A stretch of 33,923 nt of DNA, taken from the IMG/VR virus record IMGVR_UViG_3300045988_110183; one strand, given 5' to 3'. Positions 1-33,923 of this stretch are shown piece by piece; within the stretch, counting starts at the first letter, position 1; each line of letters starts with the position of its first letter. The notes under the pieces were generated by a model, which saw nothing but the letters and a program-made list of their open reading frames with translations, searched no databases and was not told the origin of the DNA. The position numbers and the translations under genes are program-made. This stretch comes from a virus.

Positions 1-55
1 AATAATGCGAAAAAGGTGTAAAACCTCTTTCGCATTTAATACTAATATTTTCATA
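1..55. repeat. 55-bp exact terminal direct repeat, copy 1. It is identical to 33869-33923 and looks like the assembly overlap of a circular molecule.
   Basis: Bases 1-55 (aataatgcgaaaaaggtg...atattttcata) recur base-for-base as the last 55 bases of the window. Confidence 0.9.
4..36 (-). terminator. Palindrome / intrinsic-terminator-like hairpin downstream of the transposase gene. It is the same physical site as 33872-33904.
   Basis: Arms AATGCGAAAAAGGT (4-17) and ACCTCTTTCGCATT (23-36) pair at 13 of 14 positions, with a 5-nt loop. On the minus strand, across the junction, the hairpin is followed by A plus T7 (33863-33871). Confidence 0.5.
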
Positions 56-67
56 GGTGAATGTCAA
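39..67 (-). promoter_or_regulatory. Candidate sigma-70-type promoter reading towards the hairpin and the early operon
   Basis: Minus strand: TTGACA (67-62), 17-nt spacer, TAGTAT (44-39). An AATGCGAAA box lies on each side. Confidence 0.4.
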
Positions 68-91
68 GAGTAAATGCGAAAATTTCATAAT

Positions 92-1141
92 TTAATTTTT
101 TGGCAGGGCGGCGACACACTCATTATAGAGTATTTCGGCGGTCAAATAGCCCAGCACTTTTCGGGGATAGTTGTTAATCCAATCTTCTACGCGCTGCACC
201 TGCTTTCTGGTGACGCTGGCAAAACTCGTGCCCTTCGGGAAACAGCGGCGAATCATTCGGTTCAGATTTTCGTTTGACCCGCGTTCCCACGAACTGTAAG
301 GGTGGCAATAATAAAATCGTGTCCGCGCCCCGTTGTATAGAACAGATTTTTCCATACCAACCAAATCAGAAAATTCCGTGCCGTTGTCTACGGTAATAGA
401 TTTGAAGATTTTGCGGAATTTAGCACCCAAGCGCCGTTCCAGCCGATTCAGGGCACGAACGGTGCTTTTTGCTGTCCTGTCAGGCATCAGGATAATAATT
501 TCTTTGCGGGTCTTTCGCTCAGTCAGAACCAGCAGGGCGCGCAGGCTTGTTTCGGCAGCGCTGTAAACGGTATCCATTTCCCAATGTCCAAATTCATCAC
601 GGCTGTTGATGATCTCCGGGCGCTTTTCAATGCTTTCGCCGCGCGGGGGTCTGGAGCCTTGCTTGTTTTCTTTTGGCTTGCGGTGGCGCTTTGGCTTGTC
701 GGGCAGGTCTTTGTCTGTAATATCTGCAAACACGCCTTTTGCAATATAGCTGTATATCGTGCTGACGCACACGGACGTCTTGAACACCTTTCCCTCCAGC
801 ACTATATCTGCCATAGCCGCCGCCGGGGAACGCTTTTCATTTTTGATTTTGTTGCCGATATACTTTGCAAATTCGTGATCGTTTCCAATTTTCAGATCGG
901 CTCCCTTGGCGCTCAAATTCGCCCGGTAGCGTTCCTCGGCTATATCAGGGCTATAAGCCGTATAAAATTCATAAGTGTCGCCATTCAAGCGCGTGTATGA
1001 GCCGCGTTCAATTTCTCTGTATACAGTGCTGATATGCACACGCAAAACATCTGCAATTTGACGGTAGGTGTACCCCTCATTTAAGCATTTTTCAATGCGC
1101 AGTCTGTCGGTGCGTGTCAGATGCTTAAAGATGCGCGGCAT
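92..1141 (-). CDS. IS30-family DDE transposase/integrase (349 aa)
   Basis: N-terminal HTH (LTRTDRLRIEKCLNEGYTYRQIADVLRVHISTVYREIERG). DDE triad context HWEMDTV ... ITVDNGTEF ... HPYSSWERGSNENLNRMIRRCFPKG, which is typical of IS30. Confidence 0.9.
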   Translation of the reverse strand: MPRIFKHLTRTDRLRIEKCLNEGYTYRQIADVLRVHISTVYREIERGSYTRLNGDTYEFYTAYSPDIAEERYRANLSAKGADLKIGNDHEFAKYIGNKIKNEKRSPAAAMADIVLEGKVFKTSVCVSTIYSYIAKGVFADITDKDLPDKPKRHRKPKENKQGSRPPRGESIEKRPEIINSRDEFGHWEMDTVYSAAETSLRALLVLTERKTRKEIIILMPDRTAKSTVRALNRLERRLGAKFRKIFKSITVDNGTEFSDLVGMEKSVLYNGARTRFYYCHPYSSWERGSNENLNRMIRRCFPKGTSFASVTRKQVQRVEDWINNYPRKVLGYLTAEILYNECVAALPKN

Positions 1142-1155
1142 ATCAAATCCCCCTG

Positions 1156-1314
1156 TCAGATCAGCGCAGGCGCGCCCTGTGCAAGCGCAAGAAGAAATTC
1201 AAGCTGTTGGACTGTAAGCGCCGCATGGCCGCAGAAACCGCGTGCACATTCGCGTGCGCACGCATCTGGAAGCCATTCGGCAACAGCATAATCTGATGAA
1301 AAATAATTTTTCAT
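1156..1314 (-). CDS. Hypothetical small protein (52 aa, MKNYFSSDYAVAEW...) immediately upstream of the transposase
   Basis: Internal ATG of ORF 1156..1377, preceded by GGGAGGA with a spacing of about 8 nt. No recognisable domain. Confidence 0.35.
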   Translation of the reverse strand: MKNYFSSDYAVAEWLPDACARECARGFCGHAALTVQQLEFLLALAQGAPALI

Positions 1315-1416
1315 ATAGTAGGTCCTCCCATGGCCTTGATTTTCCCCGCCAAATTGATTATAATAAAAAATAAGCAAGGGGCGGTTGTAGTCTCTTAGCG
1401 GCTAAAGGTTAGATGG

Positions 1417-1536
1417 TTACTTTTGAACGGGTCTCCATCTGGCCTTTTTGTTTTTTAACTGCATCCACGCGATGTAAAGGTTGAAGTATTGCTGTTTTGA
1501 TTTCGGGCTTAACTTTTCAAACTCTTTACTTTTCAT
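1417..1536 (-). CDS. Hypothetical micro-ORF (39 aa, MKSKEFEKLSPKSKQQYFNLYIAWMQLKNKKARWRPVQK). It is the first ORF of the leftward operon.
   Basis: ATG at 1536 preceded by AAAGGAA, and the ORF lies downstream of the candidate promoter at 1580-1608. It is below the ORF-track size cut-off. Confidence 0.3.
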   Translation of the reverse strand: MKSKEFEKLSPKSKQQYFNLYIAWMQLKNKKARWRPVQK

Positions 1537-1579
1537 TTGGCGGTTCCTTTCTGTTTGTACCGCCCCTTGCTATGTTTAT

Positions 1580-1608
1580 ATTGTACTATATCTAGTGCAA
1601 TAATGCAA
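1580..1608 (-). promoter_or_regulatory. Candidate leftward promoter of the switch region
   Basis: Minus strand: TTGCAT (1608-1603), 17-nt spacer, TACAAT (1585-1580). It overlaps the TGCAAT operator-like repeats. Confidence 0.5.
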
Positions 1609-2583: not shown

Positions 2584-3306
2584 TTAGTCCTCCACCCATT
2601 TGCTTGTGTAGTGGACGCCCAGTGCGTCCGCCTTTTGCTGTAAGGCAGAGGCGGCAGCGGTAGACATTGCCTGCATGGTTACGGTGTACAGGGTCGGCGC
2701 GCTGCCGTTGTCAGCGGCAGTTTTCAGCAGGGCATCATAGTCGCCCTTGCTCATGGGGCCGATGGTGGGGATTTGCAGTTTTTTGTCTGCGGTATCGGCA
2801 GCGGGCACAGCAACGCTGTGTTCGCCCTTGTTGAACTGGTATTCCTTGCCGGTGGCAAGGGTATAATCAGCGTCAAGCCATGTAAGCGGGTTGGTGCGTT
2901 TTCCGTTGAGGATAACCTCGAAATGCAGGTGCGCGCCGTATACGTTGCCAGACGTGCCGCTGTAACCGATGATCTCACCCTCTTTAACCTTTTGCCCAAC
3001 CTTAACGCAATAGCTACTAAGGTGGGCATAGCGGGTTTGCAGAGTATGCTTTTTATAAGGGGCATGTTTGATGCGTACCATGTTGCCATAGCTCTGCATA
3101 CCTGTTTTGGTGTGCCCATCCCAGTTTTGCGTCTGATCGACCGTGCCGTCCTCGGCGGCATAGACCGGGCGGATATACATACCGTTGATCTGGGTACGCA
3201 GATCAACCGCTTGATGCAGGGAGCCGTCATTGTAATACCAGCCCTGTGTCAGCACATGAATGTCAAGCGGCCAACGCAGCAGAACTTCACCGTTGGAAAG
3301 TCGCAT
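2584..3306 (-). CDS. Endolysin, M23 (LytM-type) peptidase domain with a C-terminal extension (240 aa)
   Basis: HQAVDL ... GYSGTSGNVYGAHLHFEV matches the M23 HxxxD / HxH zinc motifs. A strong SD (GGAGGT) is present. Confidence 0.85.
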   Translation of the reverse strand: MRLSNGEVLLRWPLDIHVLTQGWYYNDGSLHQAVDLRTQINGMYIRPVYAAEDGTVDQTQNWDGHTKTGMQSYGNMVRIKHAPYKKHTLQTRYAHLSSYCVKVGQKVKEGEIIGYSGTSGNVYGAHLHFEVILNGKRTNPLTWLDADYTLATGKEYQFNKGEHSVAVPAADTADKKLQIPTIGPMSKGDYDALLKTAADNGSAPTLYTVTMQAMSTAAASALQQKADALGVHYTSKWVED

Positions 3307-3481
3307 TGTTTTTTACCTCCATTTCCGTGTTCGTAGTTTGGAATATGCCGATTGCATATTCAAATTCCAAATCAGCCAGTGCGCGGCGCTGACCGCCTGT
3401 GCAGCTGTCCTTGCGTTCAGCAAGGGCAAGTGCTTCATCGGCAAGATCAAGCGCTGCGCGGGCTATCTCTCGCGCCGTCAT
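3287..3481 (-). CDS. Possible small ORF (64 aa) bridging the RT and endolysin genes
   Basis: ATG at 3481 with a weak GGTGA SD. It overlaps the RT 3' end by 35 nt and the endolysin start by 20 nt. No domain recognised. Confidence 0.2.
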   Translation of the reverse strand: MTAREIARAALDLADEALALAERKDSCTGGQRRALADLEFEYAIGIFQTTNTEMEVKNNATFQR

Positions 3482-4562
3482 AGGCTTCACCGTCCTTGTT
3501 GGCAGATTCACGCGCCGCTTTTGCGGCAAGCGCCTCTGCCCAGATTTTACGGACGATTCCATAGGCATCGGCATGGCTTGCGTGTCCTGTCCAGCTGGTA
3601 AGCTGTTCTTGCAGTTGGTTCCAGCTGACCTCACCAGCGGCATACCGGCGGATACGTCGGCGGCAGCGGGTTATGCTGTCCTTGCGTATCAGCCGGTAAT
3701 CGTGGAAATGCCGATACCCTACAAAATCAATTCCGTGCATTGGTTTGTAAATCTTTGTTTTGGGGTTCAATTCAAGGCGCAGTTCAGTGTGTAGGAACTC
3801 GGTGATCTTTTCCAGCTGTTCAACCAGTTCGAGGCGGCTGCGCGCCAAAATGACGAAATCGTCCATGTAGCGCATATACCATTTTGCACGCAGGTTTTCT
3901 TTCACGAAACGATCAAGCGGCGTCAGGTACATACCGCCAAACAGCTGACTTGTCAGGTTACCCACAGGTACGCCGACAGGCTCGCCGGTGCCGTTGTGAT
4001 CTACGATGCAGTCCAGCAGGGCAAGCACGCGCCGGTCTTTGATTTCTTTGCGGTATTGCCACTTTAGTACGTCGTGGGACATACTCGCAAAATAACTGTG
4101 AATATCGCCCTTTAGCACCCACACATTGCCGTCCCATTCCCTGTACAGGCGGTAATACCAGCGTGACAGGTCATGACTTGCTTTGTGCGCACCGCGCCCA
4201 TCAATGCAGGCATAGGAATGGGCGTAGAACCCGCGTTCAATGATCGGGCGAATGACATTGCAGAGGGCGTGCTGGGCAACTCGGTCTTTGAATGGCAGGG
4301 CGCGAATGATTCTTTCTTTCGGCTCGTAGATGGTGAAAGACCGATAAGGCTGCGGGTGGTATGTACACATCTTGAAATCTTCCTGCAATTCCAAAAGATT
4401 TTCCGACAGGCGGGCGGTGTAGGCAAGTACCTCGGTGCGGTATCGTTTGTTTTTGCGTGCCTTTCGGTATGCTTTCAGCAGATTTTCATAGGTGTAAATT
4501 TGATCGTAAATGTTATTGATGCGTTTGTGCCCCATAAGGCAACACGGCTCCCTCTTTTGCAT
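3447..4562 (-). CDS. DGR reverse transcriptase (371 aa)
   Basis: RT motifs include the catalytic YMDD (RYMDDFVIL) and the DGR-typical VGNLTSQ segment. It lies immediately downstream of the TR. Confidence 0.9.
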   Translation of the reverse strand: MQKREPCCLMGHKRINNIYDQIYTYENLLKAYRKARKNKRYRTEVLAYTARLSENLLELQEDFKMCTYHPQPYRSFTIYEPKERIIRALPFKDRVAQHALCNVIRPIIERGFYAHSYACIDGRGAHKASHDLSRWYYRLYREWDGNVWVLKGDIHSYFASMSHDVLKWQYRKEIKDRRVLALLDCIVDHNGTGEPVGVPVGNLTSQLFGGMYLTPLDRFVKENLRAKWYMRYMDDFVILARSRLELVEQLEKITEFLHTELRLELNPKTKIYKPMHGIDFVGYRHFHDYRLIRKDSITRCRRRIRRYAAGEVSWNQLQEQLTSWTGHASHADAYGIVRKIWAEALAAKAARESANKDGEAYDGARDSPRSA

Positions 4563-4693
4563 GGGCTACTTGCGGCAGCCGTCCTTTTTGATGTTTGCCG
4601 GGTATTGCCCCGAACGGGCCGAATCCTCTGACTTCTTGAAAAGTCTGTCGGTAAAGCCTTGACCGTACCGATCTGCCCCGCGTAATAATAGAA

Positions 4694-4818
4694 GTCACAG
4701 GCCCCGCGCACGCCCACATTGGTGTTGACGTTCCAAGGGTAATTGTTGCAATTCACAGTGCGGGCACCACAGTGGGCACCGTTGTTCCAGTTGCCGCCAG
4801 CAATCAGGGCGTGGAGGG
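4694..4818 (-). repeat. DGR template repeat (TR), 125 nt
   Basis: Aligns without gaps to 5229-5353. All 13 mismatches are at TR positions that are A on the minus (coding) strand. Confidence 0.9.
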
Positions 4819-4840
4819 AAAATAAGGGTTCAGCCCATGG

Positions 4841-5182
4841 TTATGATCTTGCGTTGATGGCTTTGATAAGCCCGCCAACTCTGCCGCCAATCTCCGCCAG
4901 CTTGCGCCCGATCACTTCGTAGCGGTGGGCGTTGCAATATTTCAGGTCGTAGCCGAGGTGGAAGTAGGTGCGCAGCATATCCAGTTCCCGGTCAATGGCA
5001 TAAGCATGGCTTTTCTTCGTGCTGGATTTGCGCAAGGCAACACATTCCTCCAGCATCGTGAAAATGCAATTCTTAATCCTGTTGGTAAGGGCGAATTTCT
5101 CCGCTTTAGGCCAGTTGTTCAAGATCGGGTAGATGTACAGTGCAAAATCATAAATTAGTTGTTCTGTTTCAAGTGGATTCAT
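4841..5182 (-). CDS. avd: DGR accessory variability determinant (Avd-like, 113 aa)
   Basis: Small helical, basic protein in the canonical position between the target gene and the TR. Confidence 0.75.
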   Translation of the reverse strand: MNPLETEQLIYDFALYIYPILNNWPKAEKFALTNRIKNCIFTMLEECVALRKSSTKKSHAYAIDRELDMLRTYFHLGYDLKYCNAHRYEVIGRKLAEIGGRVGGLIKAINARS

Positions 5183-5194
5183 AGTTTTTCACAA

Positions 5195-5212
5195 GCCCCG
5201 CTTTCGCGGGGC
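5195..5212 (-). promoter_or_regulatory. GC hairpin with a GAAA loop downstream of the VR (DGR target-recognition hairpin/cruciform type)
   Basis: Minus strand GCCCCGC-GAAA-GCGGGGC, 16 nt 3' of the VR end and 7 nt 3' of the target stop codon. No U-tract follows. Confidence 0.6.
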
Positions 5213-5219
5213 AAGACGG

Positions 5220-6251
5220 TCAAACAGCGTCACAGGCCCCGCGCACGCCCACATCGGTGTGGACGTTCCAAGGGCAACTGCTGCAATACACAGCGCGGGC
5301 ACCACAGTGGGCACCGTCGCCCCAGTCGCCGCCAGCAACCAGGGCGCGGAGGGCGGTATCGGACGGCATATAAATCTGACCGTAGCCGGGTACGACGTCG
5401 TACCAGTTCCAGCTGCTTGCGGTGGGTTCAAGGCAAAGTTCGTCCAGCCATTCCCACACGTTGCCCGCGCAGTCACGCAGACCCAGCAGGCTTGTTGCGT
5501 TGGCTACATAGCCGGTCAGCTGCCGCGCCGTGTTGCTGGTAGCCGTCCAGCCGTTTGCGTTGCTGGCATCAAGCCCCTGAGGGCTTCCCTCGGCACCCTT
5601 GCACCACTCGCCGTAAGACGGCATACGCTTACCAACGCGGCGCAAGCGTTCCTGCGCAATGTACCAGTTCAGCCCCTCGGTGCCGGTAATGGGCGTGGCG
5701 TTGTACTTGCTCAACAGACCGCCGTTTGCATCGTCGCTGTTGATATAGATGTCAAGCCATGTGCCGCCGCCGATGTAAACCATAGCCTCCGGGCTGCAAG
5801 CCGGCCGCCAAAGCAGCGTCCACACGGACGCGGGCACGATGCCGTCATAGACGTCGGACACGGACAGCGATTTGCGGCATTTGCCAAAGTGGAATCCGCC
5901 GATCTTGCGGCTGGTATCGGCATTGTAGCCGGAGGGGTAGGTGCTGTTTTTGGAAATAATGTAGATTTCATCTGCATCGCTGCCGGGGTCGCACAGATAC
6001 ACATAGTAGTCAGAACCGACGGTAAAAGTGCCGCTGTCGAGGTTTGCCTCGGTCAGCACAGCGTTCTGCGTCCGAAACACACCGCCGCCGGTCAGGGCAA
6101 AAACGCAGTCGGCAAATACCGTGATCTGTTTTGCGGCGTTTGCGTCGAGGTACTTTTTGACCGGGGCAACCACATCGGACAGCGCGCCGAATACCTTGCA
6201 ATTCAGCAGGGCGCGTTTGTCGGTAAGACTATCCACAAGAAAACGGCTCAT
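5220..6251 (-). CDS. DGR target protein: tail-fibre/receptor-binding protein with a C-terminal C-type-lectin/FGE-like variable domain (343 aa)
   Basis: GNVWEW motif, and a C-terminus that contains the VR (…GGDWGDGAHCGARAVYCSSCPWNVHTDVGVRGACDAV). ATGA overlap with the upstream gene. Confidence 0.85.
   Translation of the reverse strand: MSRFLVDSLTDKRALLNCKVFGALSDVVAPVKKYLDANAAKQITVFADCVFALTGGGVFRTQNAVLTEANLDSGTFTVGSDYYVYLCDPGSDADEIYIISKNSTYPSGYNADTSRKIGGFHFGKCRKSLSVSDVYDGIVPASVWTLLWRPACSPEAMVYIGGGTWLDIYINSDDANGGLLSKYNATPITGTEGLNWYIAQERLRRVGKRMPSYGEWCKGAEGSPQGLDASNANGWTATSNTARQLTGYVANATSLLGLRDCAGNVWEWLDELCLEPTASSWNWYDVVPGYGQIYMPSDTALRALVAGGDWGDGAHCGARAVYCSSCPWNVHTDVGVRGACDAV
5229..5353 (-). repeat. 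DGR variable repeat (VR), 125 nt, ending 6 nt before the stop codon
   Basis: See the TR feature. 12 codons differ from the TR-encoded sequence (H>R, I>V, N>D, N>G, N>D, T>A, N>Y, N>S, N>S, Y>C, N>H, N>D). Confidence 0.9.
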
Positions 6252-6676
6252 AAACTCATCACCACACCTTTAATATTTTTCAGTTCGGCAGCGGTCAGCC
6301 CCATGCGCTGTGCGGCGGTGCTGGGTGCCGGAATCAGCAGGGTTTCGGTATCGGACGGCAGCGCCTTTGCAAGCGTCACCGCAGTTTTTGTCAGCTGCTT
6401 TGTGCCGGTGGCGTCATCTTCTTCGATATGCTCCACGGCGGCGATCTTGGCACCGTTGCCGGTGGTCTGACCGGCGGCAGCTTCGGCGCAGTAACCAACC
6501 GTTACCGTCGTACCGTCAACGCCCAGAATCGGGCAATGCAGGTACGCGCCCGCTTCAATCTGTTCGATAGCGGCGGCAAGCTCGCTGACAGGGAATGCGG
6601 GCGGCGTTGCCTGCGCCATGGCAAGGCAGTTCAAGAGGTCTGCCTTGGTTGCAATGGTTTTCGGAAATCCTTTCAT
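6248..6676 (-). CDS. Hypothetical tail-module protein (142 aa)
   Basis: SD AAGGAGG. Translationally coupled to the DGR target gene. No domain recognised. Confidence 0.6.
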   Translation of the reverse strand: MKGFPKTIATKADLLNCLAMAQATPPAFPVSELAAAIEQIEAGAYLHCPILGVDGTTVTVGYCAEAAAGQTTGNGAKIAAVEHIEEDDATGTKQLTKTAVTLAKALPSDTETLLIPAPSTAAQRMGLTAAELKNIKGVVMSL

Positions 6677-6691
6677 GCTATATAGCCTCCT

Positions 6692-7450
6692 TTATGTCGG
6701 CTGACAGTGGGTAAAGCCGTTGTAGCAATGCCCCACAAAGCCCTCTTTGCGTACATCTTCCCGCAAGATCGCGTCAATCTGTTCCTGCTGTTTGTCAATT
6801 TGCAGTTGCAGATTTCCGGCGGCGTCCTCGGTCAGCTGATCTTTCATGTGGGCAAACCACTTTGCAAATTCGCTTTCAAAAGCCTCCTGATCTGCAAGCG
6901 CGGTGTCGGACAGTTCGCTGAACCACGTTTCGTACTGTTTCTGCATCACGGTCAGGTCGATGCCCTTGAATTTGCAGTACACATACCCGCACAGGTCAGA
7001 ATCCGCGCGCTTGTCGGTAATCATGCTGGAGGTAATCGCGGTAGCACCGGCAGGAACGCGGACATAGTACAGGCACAGATCGTATGTTTCGGCGTCACGA
7101 ATGTAAGCGGGGGCAACCGGCGTAATGGCAGGCGTACCAGCCACGACCATTGCGTGAATATCCCGCGTGTTTACATCGCGCCGAACAACAACCGTGTCAA
7201 TACGGTCAAGCGCGCCGTCGGCATAGCCGAACGTAAGCACAAGCGGGCCGTCGTTCTTGTAGTGGTAGCCGTTCACAATAGCCCAGCCCTCGCCCAGCTG
7301 CGCGGTCATGCCGCCCGCCGGGGTAAGGGTCAGATCACCTTGCTGGCACACGCCGGAATGGAACAGAATATCCGTTGTGGCGGCGGTATCAGCGGTGGTA
7401 TATTTTCTGTCCCCATTGTGCGAGGGGAAGAATCCACTCCATTCACCCAT
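6692..7450 (-). CDS. Putative tail fibre/host-specificity structural protein (252 aa)
   Basis: SD GGAGGA. Placed in the tail module after the Tal-like gene. It has a C-terminal coiled-coil-like segment. The family is not firmly recognised. Confidence 0.55.
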   Translation of the reverse strand: MGEWSGFFPSHNGDRKYTTADTAATTDILFHSGVCQQGDLTLTPAGGMTAQLGEGWAIVNGYHYKNDGPLVLTFGYADGALDRIDTVVVRRDVNTRDIHAMVVAGTPAITPVAPAYIRDAETYDLCLYYVRVPAGATAITSSMITDKRADSDLCGYVYCKFKGIDLTVMQKQYETWFSELSDTALADQEAFESEFAKWFAHMKDQLTEDAAGNLQLQIDKQQEQIDAILREDVRKEGFVGHCYNGFTHCQPT

Positions 7451-8473
7451 TTATAAATCCTCCAAATCTAAGGTTTCGGATTTTGTTTTGCCTGTGACCG
7501 GGTAGACGGTAACGCCGCCGTTTTCGTAGATTTCCTCTACTTCGGTCACGCGCTCGGTCAGGGTCTTGCCGATGGTTGAATCGCCGGTGGTTACTTTGTC
7601 GCCTAAATCCCAATCCTCGGTGTAGACAAAATTTTCAACGTCGGTCGCCGTGCCGGTGAAGTTCTCGGTCTTGATGTGGTCGAACAGCGCCCAGCCGCAT
7701 TGTGTTTTCAGTTCGTTGCGGTATTCCGAATCAGTCTTGCCGTCCGGGGTCACGCTGGAGGCGTCAACATAGCACACCCGCTTGCGGCCACCTTTGGAAC
7801 GGTCAATGGAAACAATGGTGCCGTCGCTGCCGCGCGCATACGCAACATTGCAATAGTCGGATTCATCAAGGCTGTATTCGGCGTCGATGAAGTTCTGAAA
7901 TTCATCTGTGAAATAGACGACCGGGTTGTCCGTCTGCTCGGCGCTGTGGTCTGCGCCCTCGTACACCTGAAACGTGAATTTTTGTTCCGTGCTGTACAGC
8001 AGACGAAAGCCCAGGCCGTATGCTTTGGCAACGGCGGTCATTGCTTTCAGCGTGTTTTTGAAATCCAGCTGTATTGTGATGGCGTCGCCTGTGGGCAGGT
8101 CGGCGCGGTCAACAACCAGTTCAGGCACAGAATCGCGGGCATCTTCGGCAAGCTGGCACAGGATTTCAGCCGGGGTGCCGGTGTAGCTTTTCAAGCCGAT
8201 TACAAGCGCCATGCCGAAATAGATGGACAGCATACGCGCCGACACGGTAAGTTCGTAGCCCTTGATGTCAATGCCCATCACGCGGGCAGATTCCTTGCGG
8301 TCAACCCGGCGCAGAATGACACCGGGCTGCAACAGGGCTATGTTTTCCTCGGTGGCGTACAGGTGCAGTTCTACCTCGCCCGGTTCCCAATAACGCCGAC
8401 GCCAGCGCAGGGAGGAAAACAGGTCAATCACGCCCAGAAATTCACCGCTTTCGGCAAACACATATAATTCCAT
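7451..8473 (-). CDS. Tail-associated protein, Siphovirus Gp37-like/Tal-like (340 aa)
   Basis: N-terminus (MELYVF..GEFLGVID.FSSLRWRRRYWEPGEVELHL) resembles the Gp37-like family. It lies directly downstream of Dit. Confidence 0.6.
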   Translation of the reverse strand: MELYVFAESGEFLGVIDLFSSLRWRRRYWEPGEVELHLYATEENIALLQPGVILRRVDRKESARVMGIDIKGYELTVSARMLSIYFGMALVIGLKSYTGTPAEILCQLAEDARDSVPELVVDRADLPTGDAITIQLDFKNTLKAMTAVAKAYGLGFRLLYSTEQKFTFQVYEGADHSAEQTDNPVVYFTDEFQNFIDAEYSLDESDYCNVAYARGSDGTIVSIDRSKGGRKRVCYVDASSVTPDGKTDSEYRNELKTQCGWALFDHIKTENFTGTATDVENFVYTEDWDLGDKVTTGDSTIGKTLTERVTEVEEIYENGGVTVYPVTGKTKSETLDLEDL

Positions 8474-8476
8474 AAG

Positions 8477-9337
8477 CTATACACCCCAATAGGCGGGCGT
8501 ACTGGAAACAACAACCTCCAGATTGCCGATGCCGCTTTCCGCGTCATAGCGGAATACGTTGTCGCCGGGTTCCGCTTGCAGCCATGTGGAGCCGTACACC
8601 CACAGATTATTTGCGCTTTTTTCAACGCCGTTTTGTTTCAGCTTTACCCGCTTGTTTTTCAACCCTGTTGTTACGGTCAGCACATCACCCGCGTGCATTT
8701 CGCACAGGATTTTGAACCCCTTTTGGCGCTTGACTTCAAACAGGCTGGGGTTGTATACGGTGCCGGTCGCCTTGAATTGCACGGTCAGCCCGCGCGTAAC
8801 ATTACTGCTGTTTTCAATGGTGACAACGAGGTTGGTGCGCTTGGTCGTCATTTCAAAGGGTTCATCAGGTATTTCCATCACATCGTCTGGCCACTCGATA
8901 AGCCCCTCCCATGTAGCCATTTCCACGCGCTCATCGGTAATATCCTTGAATTGCGGGTCGGGGCACATAAGGCTGATCGTTGCCTTGCGCTGCTGGCCGG
9001 TAGGGTCAACATCTACAAATTCGGGCACATAGTCGATCTTGCGGGTGACGTCGCCGTCAGTAACGTACAGGGTGCCGGTTTCGCGCGGGAGGAAAAAGCT
9101 GTACAGCCTTTCCCGCATAGCGCGGTGGTTGTCCTTAATCCAACAGTAGATCACAATGTTCCGCTTGGCGGCGGTGCTGGATTTATAAATTTCGCCGTCC
9201 TGACCGCTGCCTTTTTCGGTTTCAACCTCAAATTCGGATTTTGTAAGGCCGTCCACGTCGTCCAACCACAGCGGCCAGCGGTAGCCGATGACGATACTTT
9301 CCCCGCCGCGCTTGCAGGTCAGCAGGAAATTTCGCAT
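8477..9337 (-). CDS. Distal tail protein (Dit), siphovirus tail component family (286 aa)
   Basis: Lies immediately after the tape measure gene. SD AAAGGGGTGA. Size and position are typical of Dit. Confidence 0.65.
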   Translation of the reverse strand: MRNFLLTCKRGGESIVIGYRWPLWLDDVDGLTKSEFEVETEKGSGQDGEIYKSSTAAKRNIVIYCWIKDNHRAMRERLYSFFLPRETGTLYVTDGDVTRKIDYVPEFVDVDPTGQQRKATISLMCPDPQFKDITDERVEMATWEGLIEWPDDVMEIPDEPFEMTTKRTNLVVTIENSSNVTRGLTVQFKATGTVYNPSLFEVKRQKGFKILCEMHAGDVLTVTTGLKNKRVKLKQNGVEKSANNLWVYGSTWLQAEPGDNVFRYDAESGIGNLEVVVSSTPAYWGV

Positions 9338-9341
9338 AAAA

Positions 9342-12300
9342 TCACCCCTTTAACTTGGCAAGCAGATCGCGGGTAGCAAAGCGGGTCTGCCGTGCGGTTT
9401 CGCCGGGCGACAGCGCTTGCGGGCTGGTTATGTTGACAGTCTGGTTCATGGTGGTGTTGTTGGTAACTGCCCCCGCGCCTGCGCCAGCGGTGGCAAGCGG
9501 CGAACCGTTTACCATAACCGCCATACCAGCGGTGATACCGTCGAGGGTCTTTTGCAGGTACGGCATAGCGCCGCGCATGGCGTCGGCGTAGCCGTGGATA
9601 AAATCAACCGGCCACTTCTCGTAATCGCGCAAGGGGCCTTCGTCCGGGCGGGAAAAGTGCAGCATACTACGGATGTTTTCGGCAATGCCGCGCACCTTTT
9701 CCACCACAGCGTTTGCGGCGGACGTGATACCGCGCGCCAAACCGTTGATGAAGTCAGAACCCCATTGCACAGCCTGCGCGGGCAGTGCCTTGATGTAAGT
9801 GATTGCCTGTGTAATACAGCTGACGGCGGCATTGTAGACCGCCCCGGCAACGCTGGTAATGCCGTTGGCAAGGGCATTGAACATACTGCTGCCGATGCTC
9901 GCAAGCGTACCGGGCAACCCACGGAAAAAGCCTAAAATGCCATTCCAAATGGATTGTACGGTGTTGCTGATACCTTGGCACACGCTGCTGACGATAGACA
10001 GCAGCCCATTCCACGCGGCAGAAACCGCGCCGGAAATTGCCGACATTGCCCCGCTGATAACCGCGTTGATGCCGTTCCAAATCGCTTGTACGGTGCTGCT
10101 GATCGCGCTGCAAACCGTGCTGATTGTAGACAGCAGACCATTCCATGCGGCGGAGACTGCGCTGACAATGGCATTTGCAACGCCGCTGACAACCGCCTTG
10201 ATGCCGTTCCAAATGCCGGAAACAGCGTTGGACAACGCCGACAGGATATTGGAAACATCGCTTTTCAGGGCGGTAAAATCGCCGGTGACTAAATCGCAGA
10301 TCACCAACACGACGCCCAGCACAAGAGTTTTGATGTAGTTCCAGACGTTAGAAAAAATCTCTTTGATGCCGTTAAAGGCGGTCGTCACACCGTCGCCGAT
10401 GGTGCCCCACACCGCTTGCAGGTTGCTGGCGATAGTGGAAACAATACCGCTGACAACGGCTTGAATTGCGCCCCACACAGCGGAGAAAACAGCCTGAATT
10501 GCACTAAGCGCCGTGGAGACAGCGCCGGTAATGCCAGCCCATGCCGCTTGCAGACCGCTGGCGATGGCAGAAACAACGGTGCTGACCGTTGTTTGTATCG
10601 CGTTCCACGCGGCGGAAAATCCCGCCTGCATACCGGCAAGAAACCCCTGTATGCCGCTGATTGCGCCGGAAACAACGCTTTTGATGGCTTCCCACAGTCC
10701 TATCCAGAAATTGCGGAAAGCCTCGCTTTTGTTCCACAGGGTTACAAATGCCACTACCAGTGCCGCAATGCCTGCCACGATCAGCACAACGGGATTTGCG
10801 CCAGATAGCAGACCAAACAGTCCGGAAATAGCGCCCTTTACTTTGCCGACGGTGGAGACGATCTCCGGCGCGGCTTTCAGCACACTTCCCACACTCGACA
10901 CCAACTTGCCGATGAACAGCAAGACCGGCGACAGCACGGCAATGATACCGCCCACGGTCAAGATCACTTTTTGGGTGGATTCGTCCAGACCGCTGAATTT
11001 CTGCACAAGCCCGGAAATGCCCTCGATGATCTGCGTGATAACCGGCAACAGGTTATCCATCAGGTCAATCGCGTTGTTTTTCAGTTCGTTCAGCGCTTTT
11101 GCAAATTTCTGGCTTGTGGTGTTCGTCACCTTTGCAAAGGCGGTGTCGGTGGCACCGGCGCTTTGCTCCATCGTCTGCAAAATTTCGTTGTAGTCGCTGC
11201 CGCTGTTGCGCGCAAGCACCATGGCGGCGGAACCGCCCTCCACACTGCTGAACATATCTTTCAGGGTCTTGCCGTCCTTGGCGGCGGCATCAGAAAGCAT
11301 ATTCAGAATATCGGAGGTGGAATTGCCATCGGCTTTCAGGTCTGCAAAGCCCTTGCCGGTCAGTTCCCGCAAGGTGGTATCCGTAGTACTGCCGGACTTG
11401 GTAAGTTCGTTCAGCATGGATTTCAGGTAAGTGCCGGATTCGGCGGTGGCAATACCGTTCTTGGTAAGCAGCGCATAGGCCGAGGACAACTCGGTCATAT
11501 CGTAGTTGGCAGCTGCCGCCACAGGTATGACCTTGCCCATGCTGGAGGCAAGCTCGTCAACGGTGGTTTTACCCTCGTTCTGGGTGGTAATCAGCAGATC
11601 GCTTATTTTGCTTGCATCTTCGGCTTGCAGCTGGTAGCCGTTGATTGCGGTTGTCATAACGTCCACGGCTTTTGCGGTGTCGGTAAAGCCGCCCTTTGCC
11701 AGCTTGACAGCGGAGGTCGTAAAATCTACGGCATCGCCTGCGTCCACGCTGGCGGAAATGGCGCTGTACACAGCCTCGGAAAAGTCGTTGACAGACACGC
11801 CGGTTTCACTGCTGGCCGCCATGATGTCAGCCTTGTACGCATCAAAATCCGTGCTAGATTCGTCCAACAGGGTACTGACCTTGGCAAAGGCATCTTCAAA
11901 GTCTGCCGCCAGCTTTACACCGGCAACGCCTGCGCCCGCCACAGCAGCGGACACCGGCGCAAGAGCCTTGCCCACGCTGCTGATACCGTCGCCGATAGTC
12001 TGCATCTTATCGCCGACGGCGGAAATACGCTCGCTTAGCGTTTTGGTAGCCGCTTCGCCCGCCCCTGCAAGGTCGTCGTAGGTGGCGGTCATGGTCTCGA
12101 TATTCTTTGTGGTGCTTTCGATTTCGCGGCACAGCTTGCGGTATTCTTCTTGGTTGACCTCGGTGCCGTTTTGCATATCGGCATCAACGGCTTTTTTGGC
12201 TTGCTGTAAAGCGGTCAGTTTATCTTTGCTTGCGGCAATTTCCTTGCTTAACAATTCTTGCTTTTGTGCAAGCAGAACCGTATTTGTGGGGTCTAATTTC

Positions 12301-12434
12301 AGCAGACGATTCAATTTGCCGATTTCGCGGGAAGAACTGCTGATCTTTCCGTTCAGTTCACTTAAAGCCGTGTTGAAATTTTTGGTATCGCCGCCGATCT
12401 CAACAGTAATGCCCTTGATGTTATAGGCAGGCAA
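9342..12434 (-). CDS. Tail tape measure protein (1030 aa), TP901-type core; TTG start
   Basis: Core segment AFAKVSTLLDESSTDF...VYSAISASVDAGDAVDFTTSAVKLAKGGFTD. Long Ala/Ser/Gly-rich repeats with periodic Trp. AAAGGAGG lies 9 nt before the TTG. Confidence 0.9.
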   Translation of the reverse strand: MPAYNIKGITVEIGGDTKNFNTALSELNGKISSSSREIGKLNRLLKLDPTNTVLLAQKQELLSKEIAASKDKLTALQQAKKAVDADMQNGTEVNQEEYRKLCREIESTTKNIETMTATYDDLAGAGEAATKTLSERISAVGDKMQTIGDGISSVGKALAPVSAAVAGAGVAGVKLAADFEDAFAKVSTLLDESSTDFDAYKADIMAASSETGVSVNDFSEAVYSAISASVDAGDAVDFTTSAVKLAKGGFTDTAKAVDVMTTAINGYQLQAEDASKISDLLITTQNEGKTTVDELASSMGKVIPVAAAANYDMTELSSAYALLTKNGIATAESGTYLKSMLNELTKSGSTTDTTLRELTGKGFADLKADGNSTSDILNMLSDAAAKDGKTLKDMFSSVEGGSAAMVLARNSGSDYNEILQTMEQSAGATDTAFAKVTNTTSQKFAKALNELKNNAIDLMDNLLPVITQIIEGISGLVQKFSGLDESTQKVILTVGGIIAVLSPVLLFIGKLVSSVGSVLKAAPEIVSTVGKVKGAISGLFGLLSGANPVVLIVAGIAALVVAFVTLWNKSEAFRNFWIGLWEAIKSVVSGAISGIQGFLAGMQAGFSAAWNAIQTTVSTVVSAIASGLQAAWAGITGAVSTALSAIQAVFSAVWGAIQAVVSGIVSTIASNLQAVWGTIGDGVTTAFNGIKEIFSNVWNYIKTLVLGVVLVICDLVTGDFTALKSDVSNILSALSNAVSGIWNGIKAVVSGVANAIVSAVSAAWNGLLSTISTVCSAISSTVQAIWNGINAVISGAMSAISGAVSAAWNGLLSIVSSVCQGISNTVQSIWNGILGFFRGLPGTLASIGSSMFNALANGITSVAGAVYNAAVSCITQAITYIKALPAQAVQWGSDFINGLARGITSAANAVVEKVRGIAENIRSMLHFSRPDEGPLRDYEKWPVDFIHGYADAMRGAMPYLQKTLDGITAGMAVMVNGSPLATAGAGAGAVTNNTTMNQTVNITSPQALSPGETARQTRFATRDLLAKLKG
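9997..10260 (-). repeat. Tandem 132-bp (44-aa) duplication inside the tape measure gene
   Basis: gacagcagcccattccacgcggc (from 9997) versus gacagcagaccattccatgcggc (from 10129). The protein repeat is AAWNGLLS..(44 aa)..AAWNGLLS. Confidence 0.7.
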
Positions 12435-12498
12435 ATGGAGCCGCCTCCTTTCGTAAGCGGCTCCATTCAGCCCTTAGTGCAGACCATTTACTGCACCG

Positions 12499-13040
12499 TT
12501 ATCCAAAGAATTTGTTGATGTCTGCCTGTGTAGCCTTGATAGGCCACTTGTAGTCGTCGTTTTCACGTTCAATAGCCATATCGTTTACCATGCCCACAGT
12601 CAGCAGGTCAAGATCGCGCAGGGAAATCCCCATCTGACAACACCGCAGCATAAACAGCGGTGTTGTCATTTCGCGGGTCGTCATCCGTGTTTTTTTTTCG
12701 GGGTTGCGGTGGTAAGCGTGTTCAGGTTCCACAGTTCAAGGATCTCCGGCAGAACTTGGTAAATGTCGAAAATCTCAAACTGTTCCAGCCATTCCTCCAC
12801 GCTGCCGGGTACGGCGTCCTTGTCCGCGTGCTTTGCCATGATGTAGGCAACGCTTTCAAACAGCCCCAGATCAGTTGCGGCAAGCTGTTCCTGTTCAGTG
12901 GTGGCTTTCTCGTAGGCGGCGGCAAGTTTTGCCAAATCCTGCATGATGTCACGCCCGAACTTGATGCGGTACAGGCGCGGCACGGCGGCGGTTGCCCGCA
13001 AGCGGACTTCCTTGCCGTCAATATTGATTGTCTTTTCCAT
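12499..13040 (-). CDS. Tail assembly chaperone G-T fusion made by -1 programmed frameshift
   Basis: ORF 12499..12732 is in the -1 frame relative to G and is open across the A9 slippery run. It has no SD of its own. Confidence 0.6.
12681..13040 (-). CDS. Tail assembly chaperone G (119 aa)
   Basis: Position between the major tail and tape measure genes. It ends ...TPKKKHG just after an A9 run. Confidence 0.8.
   Translation of the reverse strand: MEKTINIDGKEVRLRATAAVPRLYRIKFGRDIMQDLAKLAAAYEKATTEQEQLAATDLGLFESVAYIMAKHADKDAVPGSVEEWLEQFEIFDIYQVLPEILELWNLNTLTTATPKKKHG
12690..12698 (-). promoter_or_regulatory. Slippery A9 run (CCG AAA AAA AAA CAC) for the G/G-T -1 frameshift
   Basis: T9 on the plus strand at 12690-12698. 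A frame check (13040 mod 3 = 2, 12732 mod 3 = 0) fits a -1 slip on the minus strand. Confidence 0.6.
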
Positions 13041-13056
13041 GTTATTCTCCTATAAG

Positions 13057-13081
13057 GCGGGTGTTCCACTGGAACACCCGC
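13057..13081. repeat. parS-like palindrome, copy 1 (GCGGGTGTTCCAcTGGAACACCCGC)
   Basis: 12-bp arms. A 20-nt core is identical (in inverted orientation) to the copy at 27312-27330. It lies between the major tail gene and chaperone G. Confidence 0.6.
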
Positions 13082-13093
13082 GCATTCCGGGTC

Positions 13094-13663
13094 TCACTCT
13101 GCCGTGTCGGTGGGCATGGTAACTTTGGTGTACCACGCCTTGCGCACGGCTTCAGTGGCATCGTCGGCGGTATGCGCCTTGATCGTGCCGTCCTTCAGCG
13201 GGGACACGGTAAGGGAGGAACTCTGGGTGTCCGGCTCGGTGCTGTCGTTCTTGGTGTTGCCGGTAATGCCGGGGCGGGTGCCGGAGCAGTTGTACAACAC
13301 GTACTTGCGCCCGGTGATGTCGCCGTCCACCTCAAACAGCAGGGCAAAGTTGCTGGCGGCAGCGTTGGCGTTCTCGACGATCAGGCCGTTCTTGCTTTTC
13401 GTCATGCCCCAAATGTCGGTCAGCATGGATTCCGGGAACATTGCCACTTCCAGATCGCCGGAATAGCCGTTGTTGGACTGGCAGACGTAGTACACAACAC
13501 CGTCCGCGTAGAACTTGGAAACGTCACCCTCGGCGTCAAGGCTAAGGGAAACCGCACCGGGCACGGCAACCGGGGTTGCAAAGGTAACAGCGCCGTCATC
13601 GCTGGCGGTCTGCTTTGCGTAGTGTACTTTTTTCAGGTTGAACAAAACTTTATCTTTAGGCAT
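13094..13663 (-). CDS. Major tail protein, phi13-like family (189 aa)
   Basis: N-terminus (FNLKKVHYA...FATPVAVPGAVSLSLDAEGD) and position upstream of the G/G-T chaperones. SD GAGGTG. Confidence 0.8.
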   Translation of the reverse strand: MPKDKVLFNLKKVHYAKQTASDDGAVTFATPVAVPGAVSLSLDAEGDVSKFYADGVVYYVCQSNNGYSGDLEVAMFPESMLTDIWGMTKSKNGLIVENANAAASNFALLFEVDGDITGRKYVLYNCSGTRPGITGNTKNDSTEPDTQSSSLTVSPLKDGTIKAHTADDATEAVRKAWYTKVTMPTDTAE

Positions 13664-14036: not shown

Positions 14037-14067
14037 GTAAGTAATAAATGCGAAAGGGTGTTGAACT

Positions 14068-14967
14068 ATGGCAAAGTGTAAACGCTGCGGGAAATGGGGA
14101 CTTTTCCTCAAGCTGGACAAAGACGGAAACTGCGTTGCCTGTCAACGTGAACTCGCCGAACAGCGCGAGGCTGAACTCCGCCGTCAGCGGGAAGAAGAAA
14201 AGCGCCGCCGGGAAGAAAAGCGCGCAGCCTTTTGGAAAGAAATGGACGAACTTCCCCGCGCCGAAATCCACACGGACGGAAAGAAGCATCGGGCTCAGCC
14301 CATCAGCTACATAAAAGATGAAATCTCCTATGCGCGCGTCACCAAGAGAAGCAACCCCGCAAAATTTGCGGATTTCGTCGTACTGGATACTGAAACCACC
14401 GGGCTTTCCTGCACAAAGGACGCCGTGTTGGAAGTTGCGGCAATCAAAGTAAAGAGTTATAAATTTATTGAGGTATTCCATACAATGATTACCCCCCCCC
14501 CGCAAAAACTTGAAACAGCTTCCGCTAAAGAGGCTATGTCAATCAATGGCATAACGCCGGAAATGCTGGAGGGTGCGCCCGCGCTGTATCAAATCATTCC
14601 GTCTTTGCAGGAATTTATCGGAGATATGCCCCTGCTTGGGCACAACCTTGAATTTGATTTGAAATTCTTGTGCCGCGCCGGGCTTGACATCACGATTGAT
14701 AAGCGAAAGTTTTTCGATAGCTATGTGCTGGCGGGAAGTATCCTCAAAAAGCCAAAATGGGAATATGACAGCGAACTGGGGTGCTATTCCCCGAACTATG
14801 ACAAACCCTATGACATATCAGACTATAAGCTAGATACACTTTGCCGCTACTACGCCATAGACCGCGCAGACGAACACCGCGCATTAGGGGATTGCATAGA
14901 TACAGCAAGGGTTTTTAGATGCCTCTTGCAAGAAAAAATAGATACCACAGAAGATTTTGACGCTTGA
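14068..14967 (+). CDS. Zinc-ribbon + coiled-coil + DEDDh (DnaQ/epsilon-like) 3'-5' exonuclease domain protein (299 aa)
   Basis: CKRCGKWG...CVAC zinc ribbon. ExoI VVLDTETTGL, ExoII LGHNLEFDLKFL, ExoIII HRALGDCIDTARVF. It is antisense to the surrounding late operon. Confidence 0.85.
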   Translation: MAKCKRCGKWGLFLKLDKDGNCVACQRELAEQREAELRRQREEEKRRREEKRAAFWKEMDELPRAEIHTDGKKHRAQPISYIKDEISYARVTKRSNPAKFADFVVLDTETTGLSCTKDAVLEVAAIKVKSYKFIEVFHTMITPPPQKLETASAKEAMSINGITPEMLEGAPALYQIIPSLQEFIGDMPLLGHNLEFDLKFLCRAGLDITIDKRKFFDSYVLAGSILKKPKWEYDSELGCYSPNYDKPYDISDYKLDTLCRYYAIDRADEHRALGDCIDTARVFRCLLQEKIDTTEDFDA

Positions 14968-27299: not shown

Positions 27300-27311
27300 G
27301 GTTCCCTCCGG

Positions 27312-27330
27312 GGTGTTCCAGTGGAACACC
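27312..27330. repeat. parS-like palindrome, copy 2 (GGTGTTCCAgTGGAACACC), 13 nt upstream of the ParB-like start codon
   Basis: 9-bp arms. Identical to the core of the copy at 13057-13081. The half-site TGTTCCA matches the Firmicute parS half-site TGTTNCA(C). Confidence 0.6.
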
Positions 27331-27341
27331 AAAACGGCATT

Positions 27342-33843: not shown

Positions 33844-33868
33844 TTCCGCACCTCGCTTTCGGTAAAAA

Positions 33869-33923
33869 AATAATGCGAAAAAGGTGTAAAACCTCTTTCG
33901 CATTTAATACTAATATTTTCATA
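33869..33923. repeat. 55-bp exact terminal direct repeat, copy 2 (identical to 1-55)
   Basis: Base-for-base identity with the window start. Confidence 0.9.

Follow-up and report, generated by a model that had tools for sequence, protein, structure and literature searches.

The analysed stretch of 33,923 nucleotides (the window) most likely represents a temperate tailed phage that infects Gemmiger (Oscillospiraceae), captured in its circular, non-integrated state, and that belongs to the class of phage FP_Lagaffe and the 'IScream' phages. Based on its sequence we propose, with a probability of roughly nine in ten, that the 33.9-kb genome acts as one giant IS30-like transposon. Phages that use an IS30 transposase as integrase have already been published (Cornuault et al. 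2018, PMC5883640; Wirbel, Hickey et al. 2025, PMC12823448). To this class the window adds a phage of Gemmiger that is very widespread: an identical transposase protein is encoded on 649 public contigs, where it is labelled 'IS30 family transposase [Gemmiger sp.]'. New here are the terminal repeats, of which there is a single pair, the spacer of 2 bp, the target duplication of 15 bp and the oriented preference for sites upstream of promoters.

Phage ends and the circle junction

The window is a circular assembly with a terminal overlap of 55 bp, its unique part amounting to ~33.87 kb. The tips of the phage were defined by the breaks of similarity in relatives and by exact motif searches. Similarity between the window and its relatives ends exactly at position 56, beyond which 28 distinct host flanks follow, and the left tip is adjoined by 29 distinct host flanks. 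The right terminal inverted repeat, IRR (56-82, plus strand, tip at 56), reads inward GGTGAATGTCAAGAGTAAATGCGAAAA and holds a TTGACA that faces outward and lies 6 nt from the tip. The left repeat, IRL (27-53, minus strand, tip at 53), reads inward TGAAAATATTAGTATTAAATGCGAAAG, and its sequence is found again at 33895-33921 because of the assembly overlap. At 27 bp the two repeats have the length typical of the IS30 family, in which terminal inverted repeats of ~20-30 bp mark the ends of the mobile unit; aligned ungapped they match at 18 of 27 positions and share TAAATGCGAAA at positions 16-26. Exact copies of TAAATGCGAAA are restricted to the two terminal repeats and a single site at 14045, while a copy with two mismatches resides in a hairpin just inside the left end; TAAATGCGAAAG is present in both repeats and at 14045-14056.

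In the circular form the repeats abut with a 2-bp spacer, TA (54-55), between them, as in IS30 circles (PMC9333248), in agreement with the earlier note, which had invoked a circular intermediate with abutted ends. In circular junctions of independent samples the spacer is always exactly 2 bp long and reads TA, AA, AC, CC, GA or TT, and a variable spacer of exactly this length is seen in three lineages (A, C and D). When the spacers were set against the dinucleotides beside each tip, neither the left nor the right flank stood out as their source.

The hairpin inside IRL is terminator-like (4-36, minus strand), with a 14-bp stem, a free energy of -24.9 kcal/mol (z = -4.3) and a T-run that follows it on the minus strand (33864-33870). 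Its arms carry two inverted copies of the AATGCGAAA motif, and it is also present in lineages C and D, in Lagaffe and in Saumur. The hairpin directly follows a promoter-like site that runs across the junction (39-67, minus strand), composed of the TTGACA of IRR, 17 nt and TAGTAT of IRL; in lineage C the equivalent reads TTGACA-17-TAATAT. This arrangement exists only in the circle and is directed into the left end, pointing away from the transposase gene. The TTGACA and the -10-like hexamer of the two repeats may, in analogy to Pjunc of IS30 (PMC9333248), form a promoter that is present only in the circle.

Insertion sites in the host chromosome

Integrated copies, for which the earlier note had proposed a search, are found in host genomes; they occupy many chromosomal sites and their ends map to positions 53 and 56 of the window. 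Long host contigs, up to 264 kb in size, contain dozens of the chromosomal junctions, and the flanks are Gemmiger housekeeping genes, among them recR, spoIIAB, pheT, rplU, valS and ftsK. Exact look-ups with a 156-aa protein of the left end returned no long contigs; those with 45-aa and 71-aa proteins did. A DNA-level search of a phage collection with the window gave weak matches only. Since the closest relative among species-representative genomes is only 58% identical, the target duplications were taken from metagenome assemblies. At five independent sites they measure 15, 15, 15, 15 and 16 bp, three of the five pairs being located on a single contig, instead of the 2-3 bp that are usual in the IS30 family and that the earlier note had predicted. 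Two cases in which end pairs on one contig show no duplication, L183/L006 (36.3 kb apart) and L005, as well as the flanks of L005 and L009, which do not pair, were left out of this set as probable assembly chimeras or rearrangements. As the L006 contig stops 55 nt beyond the tip, L183/L006 is likely a chimeric assembly.

The left tip lies 26 bp upstream of a host sigma-A -35 hexamer, and the promoter fires away from the prophage. A -35 together with an extended -10 at this fixed register was detected in 19 of 27 left flanks as compared to none of 26 right flanks, and the same register recurs in 6 of the 7 left flanks of the divergent lineages C and D, so that sigma-A promoters are targeted in one orientation, as described for TnGBS-type elements. 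The gap between the -35 and the duplicated segment is 11 bp; given the 26-bp distance of the left tip, the duplicated 15 bp cover roughly promoter positions -61 to -47. A CAA motif 30 nt outside the left tip had been considered as a mimic of the phage repeat or as a terminator loop and was rejected as either, its reverse complement being a complete -35/17/extended -10 promoter.

We think it likely that host promoters guide the target choice of the IS30-type integrases found in this class of phages: insertion would occur in one orientation, 26 bp separating the left tip from the sigma-A -35 downstream of it, and would duplicate 15 bp of the UP-element zone, the core remaining intact and firing away from the prophage. 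If true, the specificity known from TnGBS would have originated independently in a second transposase superfamily, and the whole phage would be a single 34-kb IS30-like unit and not a composite transposon. The anatomy of ends, spacer, duplication and insertion would explain how these phages can reside at dozens of chromosomal sites with no gene disruption, why short-read assemblies break at the phage ends, and why they escape prophage finders that rely on integrases and att sites. For testing how a DDE enzyme reads a promoter, the donor junction and the target are now defined. Within a literature search of limited scope, we found no termini, 2-bp spacer, 15-bp duplication or promoter-oriented insertion in the Lagaffe and IScream papers (PMC5883640, PMC12823448).

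IS30-related genes reside at both ends of the phage: the right end carries a full transposase and the left end an HTH_38 fragment, as would be expected of a composite transposon in which two separate IS30 elements, one per end, carry the phage as a cassette (PMC12823448). Such an arrangement may well describe the evolutionary origin of the phage. However, there are no inner IS boundaries, exact TAAATGCGAAA copies have the restricted distribution given above, the left gene encodes a DNA-binding domain only, and both the circle junction and the target duplications involve the outermost tips alone. Functionally, these features indicate one unit with one pair of ends, and we regard two cooperating IS30 elements as unlikely.

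The left gene (33580-33843, minus strand) is directed inward, begins with GTG 78 nt from the left tip and encodes an 87-aa HTH_38-only protein with no catalytic domain, corresponding to the inward 'truncated IS30' gene of IScream phages. The protein is 47% identical to the N-terminus of the transposase, of which it is a paralogue, and it matches PHROG 11420 as well as positions 1-80 of PHROG 4646. The gene is also present in public gene calls; the window's exact protein is rare (8 contigs). The paralogue is likely to bind TAAATGCGAAA, which both repeats share, and to modulate the reaction.

Gene content and the transposase

Pfam scans of the window identified genes for replication, packaging, head, tail, a DGR and lysis; this full tailed-phage gene set, together with the closed circle and its 55-bp overlap, supports the earlier description of the genome as apparently complete. 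The replication initiator is of the Lin1244 type, and an HNH endonuclease gene adjoins the terminase. Profile matches further identify a ParA-like ATPase (28108-28896) and a ParB_N protein (26232-27332), genes that leave room for some episomal maintenance. Minus-strand ORFs were tiled, and Pfam scans covering all of them and two plus-strand genes detected no tyrosine or serine recombinase. Within this set the IS30 transposase is the only recombinase, as the earlier note had stated, and the phage combines a complete tailed-phage gene set with the lack of a tyrosine/serine integrase in the manner of IScream phages and Lagaffe.

The ParA- and ParB-like genes and the many circular assemblies could also reflect a phage-plasmid, in which lysogeny is episomal and integration incidental. 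The dozens of junctions within host contigs of up to 264 kb argue against this, and induction or lytic growth should give rise to circular forms. ParB_N proteins, moreover, are common in phages that have no plasmid prophages. We consider a phage-plasmid very unlikely.

Likewise, a DDE transposase near the immunity region, the many insertion sites and the linear contigs that in some cases end at the tips are reminiscent of a Mu-like phage, which replicates by repeated transposition and is packaged from integrated copies along with host DNA. Yet closed circles with abutted ends occur in many samples, a replication initiator is present, an HNH gene next to the terminase is typical of cos phages, a MuB-like ATPase was not found and the transposase is of the IS30 and not of the Mu type. 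The relative Lagaffe is a cos phage with a mapped cos site (PMC5883640). We consider Mu-like growth highly improbable, and the likeness to transposable phages drawn in the earlier note does not hold for a phage with terminase and HNH genes, free circles and its own replication initiator.

The transposase gene (92-1141, minus strand) encodes a 349-aa IS30-family DDE protein with an N-terminal HTH_38 domain and an rve domain (both Pfam matches). It is transcribed outward to the right tip, its stop codon at 92 lying 36 nt from the tip at 56, and is thus located <1 kb from the prophage end. The protein scores 238 bits against NCBIfam NF033563 'IS30 family transposase' (cut-off 80) and 429 bits over its full length against PHROG 4646 'transposase, integration and excision'. 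At the catalytic positions, D190, D252 and E286 are spaced D-61-D-33-E, with the 33 residues between the second D and E that characterize IS30-family DDE enzymes, and are invariant in 23 homologues of 36-100% identity, which bears out the claim of a full-length enzyme with intact catalytic contexts. Identity is 54.5% to the integrase of Lagaffe and 50% to Saumur. We infer from these features that catalysis is carried out by this protein.

The transposase is the third ORF of a leftward unit, an order that had been noted before and that we could reproduce. A plus-strand gene (1727-1948) for a 73-aa XRE/Cro-C1-type HTH protein (HTH_26, E = 5e-11), the candidate repressor, is separated by a divergent region from a 39-aa ORF (1417-1536, minus strand), the first gene of the unit, which is followed by a 52-aa ORF (1156-1314, minus strand) directly upstream of the transposase gene. 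Both small ORFs are also found in public gene calls, the 52-aa ORF being called in public assemblies, and neither has a family match. Even in the lineage with 68% transposase identity, the 39-aa ORF retains 95-100%, and the 52-aa ORF is 71-95% identical in relatives. The putative divergent control region (1537-1726), delineated by a repeat search (I3), a promoter consensus scan and direct reading, contains operator-like palindromes at 1577-1601 and 1616-1640 and a predicted extended -10 promoter for the XRE gene. A leftward promoter proposed at 1580-1608 had no match in the minus-strand consensus scan; by eye only a weak TTGCAT-17-TACAAT is discernible there.

A search of positions 1-2000 found no inverted repeats that bracket the transposase gene alone, as the earlier note had reported; one repeat pair (I1, 1359-1385/1559-1585) encloses only the 39-aa ORF. 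The gene keeps its position in relatives with no more than 50-68% transposase identity and in Lagaffe, which answers the question, raised in the earlier note, of its conservation among related phages. In the 68% lineage the neighbouring genes have diverged in step with it, in the 50-59% lineages an HTH_38 gene likewise follows it directly, and all circular-form loci retrieved through other genes carry it. Neither a relative that lacks the gene and shows a clean empty site nor a conventional integrase was encountered when these were looked for. That the gene derives from an ordinary IS30 insertion in a phage that lysogenises by other means is therefore hardly credible, even though the protein is a bona fide IS30-family transposase and insertions of this family occur in other phages (phiPV83 and bIL311, for example), because such repeats flank only the whole phage, the gene and its surroundings are conserved as described, no relative is without it and no other recombinase was detected.

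Proposed reaction and relation to known elements

We propose that the outward-facing transposase would bind both repeats, as deduced from the IS30 pathway, cut at the tips of the IRR-NN-IRL junction and paste the circle into the target, the 2-bp spacer being lost. Upon induction, the circle would be re-formed by attack 2 bp outside the opposite end, from which it would follow that the spacer differs between phage populations; in this scheme the spacer is a record of the last integration site. The circle would then replicate as an episome, using the Lin1244-type initiator and the ParA/ParB-like genes, and the terminase would package the replicated phage DNA.

IScream phages, whose integrases are IS30-type and which comprise 1,780 catalogue genomes (Wirbel, Hickey et al., Nature 2025, PMC12823448), resemble the window in several respects. 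They lack a conventional integrase, carry a conserved full-length outward IS30 transposase at one end and an inward truncated IS30-derived gene with no catalytic domain at the other, possess full sets of structural and lysis genes, form circles and have Clostridia of the human gut as hosts. The paper models them by analogy with composite transposons, whereas the window has a single pair of terminal repeats, and it makes no mention of inverted repeats, junction spacers, target duplications or promoters (PMC12823448).

The Faecalibacterium phage FP_Lagaffe (NC_047911.1) also uses an IS30-type transposase as integrase, and its prophage is flanked by direct repeats (PMC5883640). A truncated IS30-like gene at the other end is described in both the Lagaffe and the IScream papers, and virions are produced, according to these papers, by Lagaffe and by a B. 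hansenii phage (PMC5883640, PMC12823448). Lagaffe and the window share the local layout of holin, divergent regulator, small ORFs, transposase, short gap and HTH protein. In the gap they have in common the motifs TTTTCGCATTTACTCTTGAC... and ...ATATTAAATGCGAAAGG, the hairpin and the T-run, and both carry a DGR reverse transcriptase. Lagaffe differs from the window in its length of 48 kb, its classification as a myovirus and its hosts.

IS30 of E. coli belongs to the same transposase family, with D-D(33)-E, and has terminal inverted repeats of ~26 bp; its circle holds the repeats 2 bp apart, one end supplying a -35 and the opposite end a -10, and its choice of target is, like that of the phage, non-random (PMC9333248). 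The two elements differ in size (1.2 kb versus 33.9 kb) and in target duplication (2 bp versus 15-16 bp). The targets of IS30 are near-palindromic hot spots or its own repeats, whereas those of the phage are promoters, and Pjunc drives the IS30 transposase gene, whereas the junction site of the phage points away from it, into the left end.

A parallel in target choice is found in TnGBS and in ISLre2/ISKra4, in which a DDE transposase likewise directs insertion in one orientation and at a constant spacing upstream of the sigma-A -35 (PMC3942029). TnGBS, like the phage, is a large mobile element with a DDE transposase in place of the integrase, a circular intermediate and asymmetric repeats; TnGBS elements are, however, conjugative and not phages (PMC3942029). 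The TnGBS transposase is Mutator-like (p-MULT), of a superfamily unrelated to the IS30 transposase of the phage, and the distance is 15-17 bp for TnGBS-type elements, whereas in the phage the tip is 26 bp and the duplicated segment 11 bp away. In ICE6013 of Staphylococcus aureus an IS30-like transposase is the integrase/excisase of a large element that forms circles with a short coupling sequence; unlike the phage, this element is conjugative, generates short (~3-bp) duplications and inserts at AT-rich targets. Another IS30-family transposase encoded by a phage is ORF3 of the Spiroplasma plectrovirus SpV1, a small filamentous phage with single-stranded DNA that, at 27% identity, is only a distant relative.

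Gene order and the transposase

The first and last 55 bases of the window proved identical in an end comparison, so the assembly is a closed circle and holds about 33,868 unique bases. Nearly all genes lie on the minus strand, in one long leftward series that starts with ORFs of 39 aa (1417-1536) and 52 aa (1156-1314) and has the transposase (349 aa, 92-1141) as its third member, the order described in the earlier note; the leftward promoter placed there at 1580-1608 found no support in a consensus scan and is a weak match by eye only. Across the assembly join, the series continues with an 87-aa HTH_38-only protein (33580-33843), a DNA methylase, a Lin1244-type replication initiator, a VRR-NUC and a PAPS-reductase-like protein, a ParA-like ATPase (28108-28896) and a ParB_N protein (26232-27332), HNH, large terminase, portal, ClpP protease and capsid, and tail genes including a tape measure of 1030 aa; an M23 endolysin and an r1t-type holin come last. 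Only two genes, XRE-type (1727-1948) and RNase_T exonuclease (14068-14967), are on the plus strand. Minus-strand segment 3447-6251, which follows the tail genes and precedes the endolysin, is a complete diversity-generating retroelement, consisting of an Mtd-like target with a C-terminal FGE-sulfatase/C-type-lectin fold (5220-6251), bAvd (4841-5182), a reverse transcriptase (3447-4562) and a template-repeat-like segment (about 4475-4756). In relatives, repeats at 4694-4818 and 5229-5353 of this region are 89-94% identical, and the published phage Lagaffe has such a retroelement as well.

The product of 92-1141 scores 238 bits against the curated IS30 family model (cut-off 80), carries the Pfam domains HTH_38 and rve and matches PHROG 4646, 'transposase, integration and excision', over its full length (429 bits). 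D190, D252 and E286 are invariant among 23 homologues (36-100% identity), and the gap of 33 residues between D252 and E286 is the IS30-type spacing, in agreement with the full-length, catalytically intact DDE enzyme proposed previously. It was likewise proposed to be the only recombinase, and none of the window ORFs scanned contains a tyrosine or serine recombinase domain. A variant of the phage on public contig L196 has, behind its DNA methylase gene, an insertion (11328-13416) with two genes for tyrosine recombinases (PF00589; 529 and 324 aa), probably a separate mobile element within the phage.

Ends of the mobile unit and the circle junction

The ends were mapped on 64 viral and 73 genome contigs encoding relatives of the transposase. 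Similarity of the closest relatives to the window stops exactly at 56, the right tip, where the gene-sense strand ends in TTGACATTCACC and beyond which every relative contig carries a different sequence. Identical copies of the transposase are present in 1,225 index blocks of public assemblies; the ten longest contigs all have reverse transcriptase, endolysin, holin, XRE, small ORFs and transposase, followed by ten different host neighbourhoods. Look-ups via genes near the left end gave many different host genes, then TGAAAATATTAGTATTAAATGCGAAAG starting at the left tip (window 53), then the HTH_38 gene. Altogether 28 distinct right and 29 distinct left flanks were counted, and the flank proteins RecR, anti-sigma-F and PheT have exact matches named Gemmiger or Gemmiger formicilis. 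The search for integrated copies that the earlier note had called for thus placed both ends on the circle. As these copies are abundant, a prophage maintained as an episome is disfavoured, and yet the ParA/ParB-like genes mean that there could be some episomal life. Such a pair in a chromosome-integrating phage could serve to partition the circles or have an unrelated role.

Read from the tip inward, the right repeat (56-82) is GGTGAATGTCAAGAGTAAATGCGAAAA and the left repeat (53-27) is TGAAAATATTAGTATTAAATGCGAAAG; aligned without gaps from the tips they agree at 18 of 27 positions and share the block TAAATGCGAAA at positions 16-26. An exact 12-mer, TAAATGCGAAAG, the inner block of the two repeats, recurs at 14045-14056 on the plus strand. 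It is preceded there by a promoter-like TTGCAT-17-TATGCT and followed by the RNase_T exonuclease gene (14068-14967) with its ribosome-binding site, and may serve as an operator to which either the transposase or the HTH_38 protein binds. The left-end HTH_38 domain is homologous to transposase residues 1-80 and is the counterpart of the 'inward-directed truncated IS30' in the description of IScream phages. A composite transposon with an IS30 element at each end may describe the origin of this arrangement, but today activity is confined to the outermost tips, and the left 'IS30' amounts to a DNA-binding fragment.

At the window junction the tips are separated by 2 bp (TA, 54-55), and independent junction-crossing assemblies always have exactly 2 bp, being TA, AA, AC, CC, GA or TT. 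The design recurs, with other tip sequences and once more 2 variable bp, in two further lineages whose transposases share only 58% and 52% identity with that of the window; in Lagaffe and Clostridium phage Saumur, too, the same junction motifs lie at the same places. Invariant tips with a variable spacer are expected if the spacer is copied from DNA beside the previous insertion. In IS30 circles the abutted repeats also lie 2 bp apart (PMC9333248), in keeping with the IS30-style circular intermediate suggested earlier. Replication of the Mu type is unlikely, as closed circles exist, a replication initiator and a terminase plus HNH are present, and the Lagaffe cos site has been mapped (PMC5883640).

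The right repeat contains TTGACA 6 nt from its tip, and TTGACA-17-TAGTAT, spanning the junction with its 2-bp spacer (TAATAT in lineage C, a divergent relative), forms a promoter-like site that recalls the IS30 junction promoter (PMC9333248). Yet it points into the left end and meets a hairpin (14-bp stem, then a T-run) between the left repeat and the HTH_38 gene; this hairpin is kept in all lineages examined, and its arms carry two inverted copies of the AATGCGAAA motif. L197 (ENA ERZ28810366 NODE_845, 70,371 bp), about twice the phage length with an internal transposase-to-HTH_38 junction, could be a tandem dimer or concatemer, or could result from wrap-around during assembly.

Published relatives

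The ends, circles and integrated copies support the earlier proposal that the IS30-family transposase acts as the phage integrase. The idea is right but already published, for Lagaffe and for the IScream phages. Cornuault et al. demonstrated virions of Lagaffe, together with its cos site and the direct repeats at its flanks (PMC5883640); its transposase is 54.5% identical to the window's and lies in the same local gene order. The class owes its name, 'IScream phages', to Wirbel, Hickey et al. 2025, who identified 1,780 candidates in a catalogue of gut viruses and, for a phage of Blautia hansenii, demonstrated both circular forms and particles (PMC12823448). A passenger insertion sequence of the IS30 family is excluded, as it has no ends of its own (our search, like the earlier reading, found no inverted repeats bracketing the transposase gene alone) and the gene position is conserved down to about 50% transposase identity.

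Target duplication and target choice

Comparing each right flank with each left flank for a shared suffix/prefix revealed five independent sites with duplications of 15, 15, 15, 15 and 16 bp, rather than the 2-3 bp anticipated, and no matches of 8-14 bp. Three of the five pairs each lie on a single contig: one of 148 kb with ends 33.6 kb apart (L166 and L143), one of 56 kb (L193 and L146), and a 4.1-kb mini-derivative (L182 and L004). IS30 itself duplicates 2 bp. Long target duplications are known for one member of its family, IS1630 of Mycoplasma. Lagaffe is 'flanked by direct repeats' (PMC5883640), in agreement with the long duplications here.

Mini-derivatives of 3.9-7 kb (L004/L182, IMGVR_UViG_3300029576_000151; L005; L009; L010) have lost all structural genes, through a deletion of roughly window 31845 to 2394, and retain the two tips together with the transposase, immunity region and HTH_38 gene. 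In one of them a clean 15-bp duplication lies beside a tRNA gene, and L009 joins a left end of lineage A, the window's own, to a right end of lineage B, another relative. In L001 (IMGVR_UViG_3300023545_000154), 3091-4012 repeats window 6692-7613 in inverted orientation directly beside the colinear part (4011-10647); this looks like an assembly artefact.

Read outward from the tip, left flanks consist of the 15 duplicated bases, about 11 C-rich bases, cTTGACA, 16-17 bases and a TGnTATAAT-like extended -10, with T at 27 in 21/27, T at 28 in 23/27 and G at 29 in 17/27. By a fixed criterion, which asks for a promoter-like site with its -35 beginning 26-28 nt from the tip, 19 of the 27 distinct left flanks qualify as compared to none of 26 right flanks, and such sites hardly ever occur at other positions or in the opposite orientation. 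In 16 of 27 left flanks CAA, complementary to TTG, begins at -29, where the background is 0.7 per position. The host gene on this side (rplS, rplU, pheS, valS, ftsK, queT and a tRNA gene among them) is in nearly all cases divergent from the phage. In lineages C and D, divergent relatives with a similar end design, six of seven integrated left flanks have TTGnnn at 27-32 and a -10 seventeen bases on. This promoter register in lineages A, C and D argues that the phage inserts in one orientation, directly upstream of predicted sigma-A promoters, leaving the promoter core intact.

TnGBS and ISLre2-type elements likewise insert upstream of sigma-A promoters, at 15-17 bp, with a Mutator-like transposase unrelated to the IS30-family enzyme (PMC3942029). 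A link of IScream/Lagaffe-type phages to promoter targeting was not found in the literature searched, and the terms 'inverted repeat', 'target site', 'direct repeat', 'promoter' and 'intergenic' are absent from PMC12823448; the termini, spacer, duplication length and target rule appear to be additions to that literature, and the anatomy of the ends and the target specificity are testable. The right flanks of L138, L142 and L012 and positions 1-110 of L010 carry a common palindromic host repeat, AAAGTTTTTTGAAGAAnTTTCTTCAAAAAA, beside different host genes, which suggests a dispersed host repeat that is hit repeatedly.
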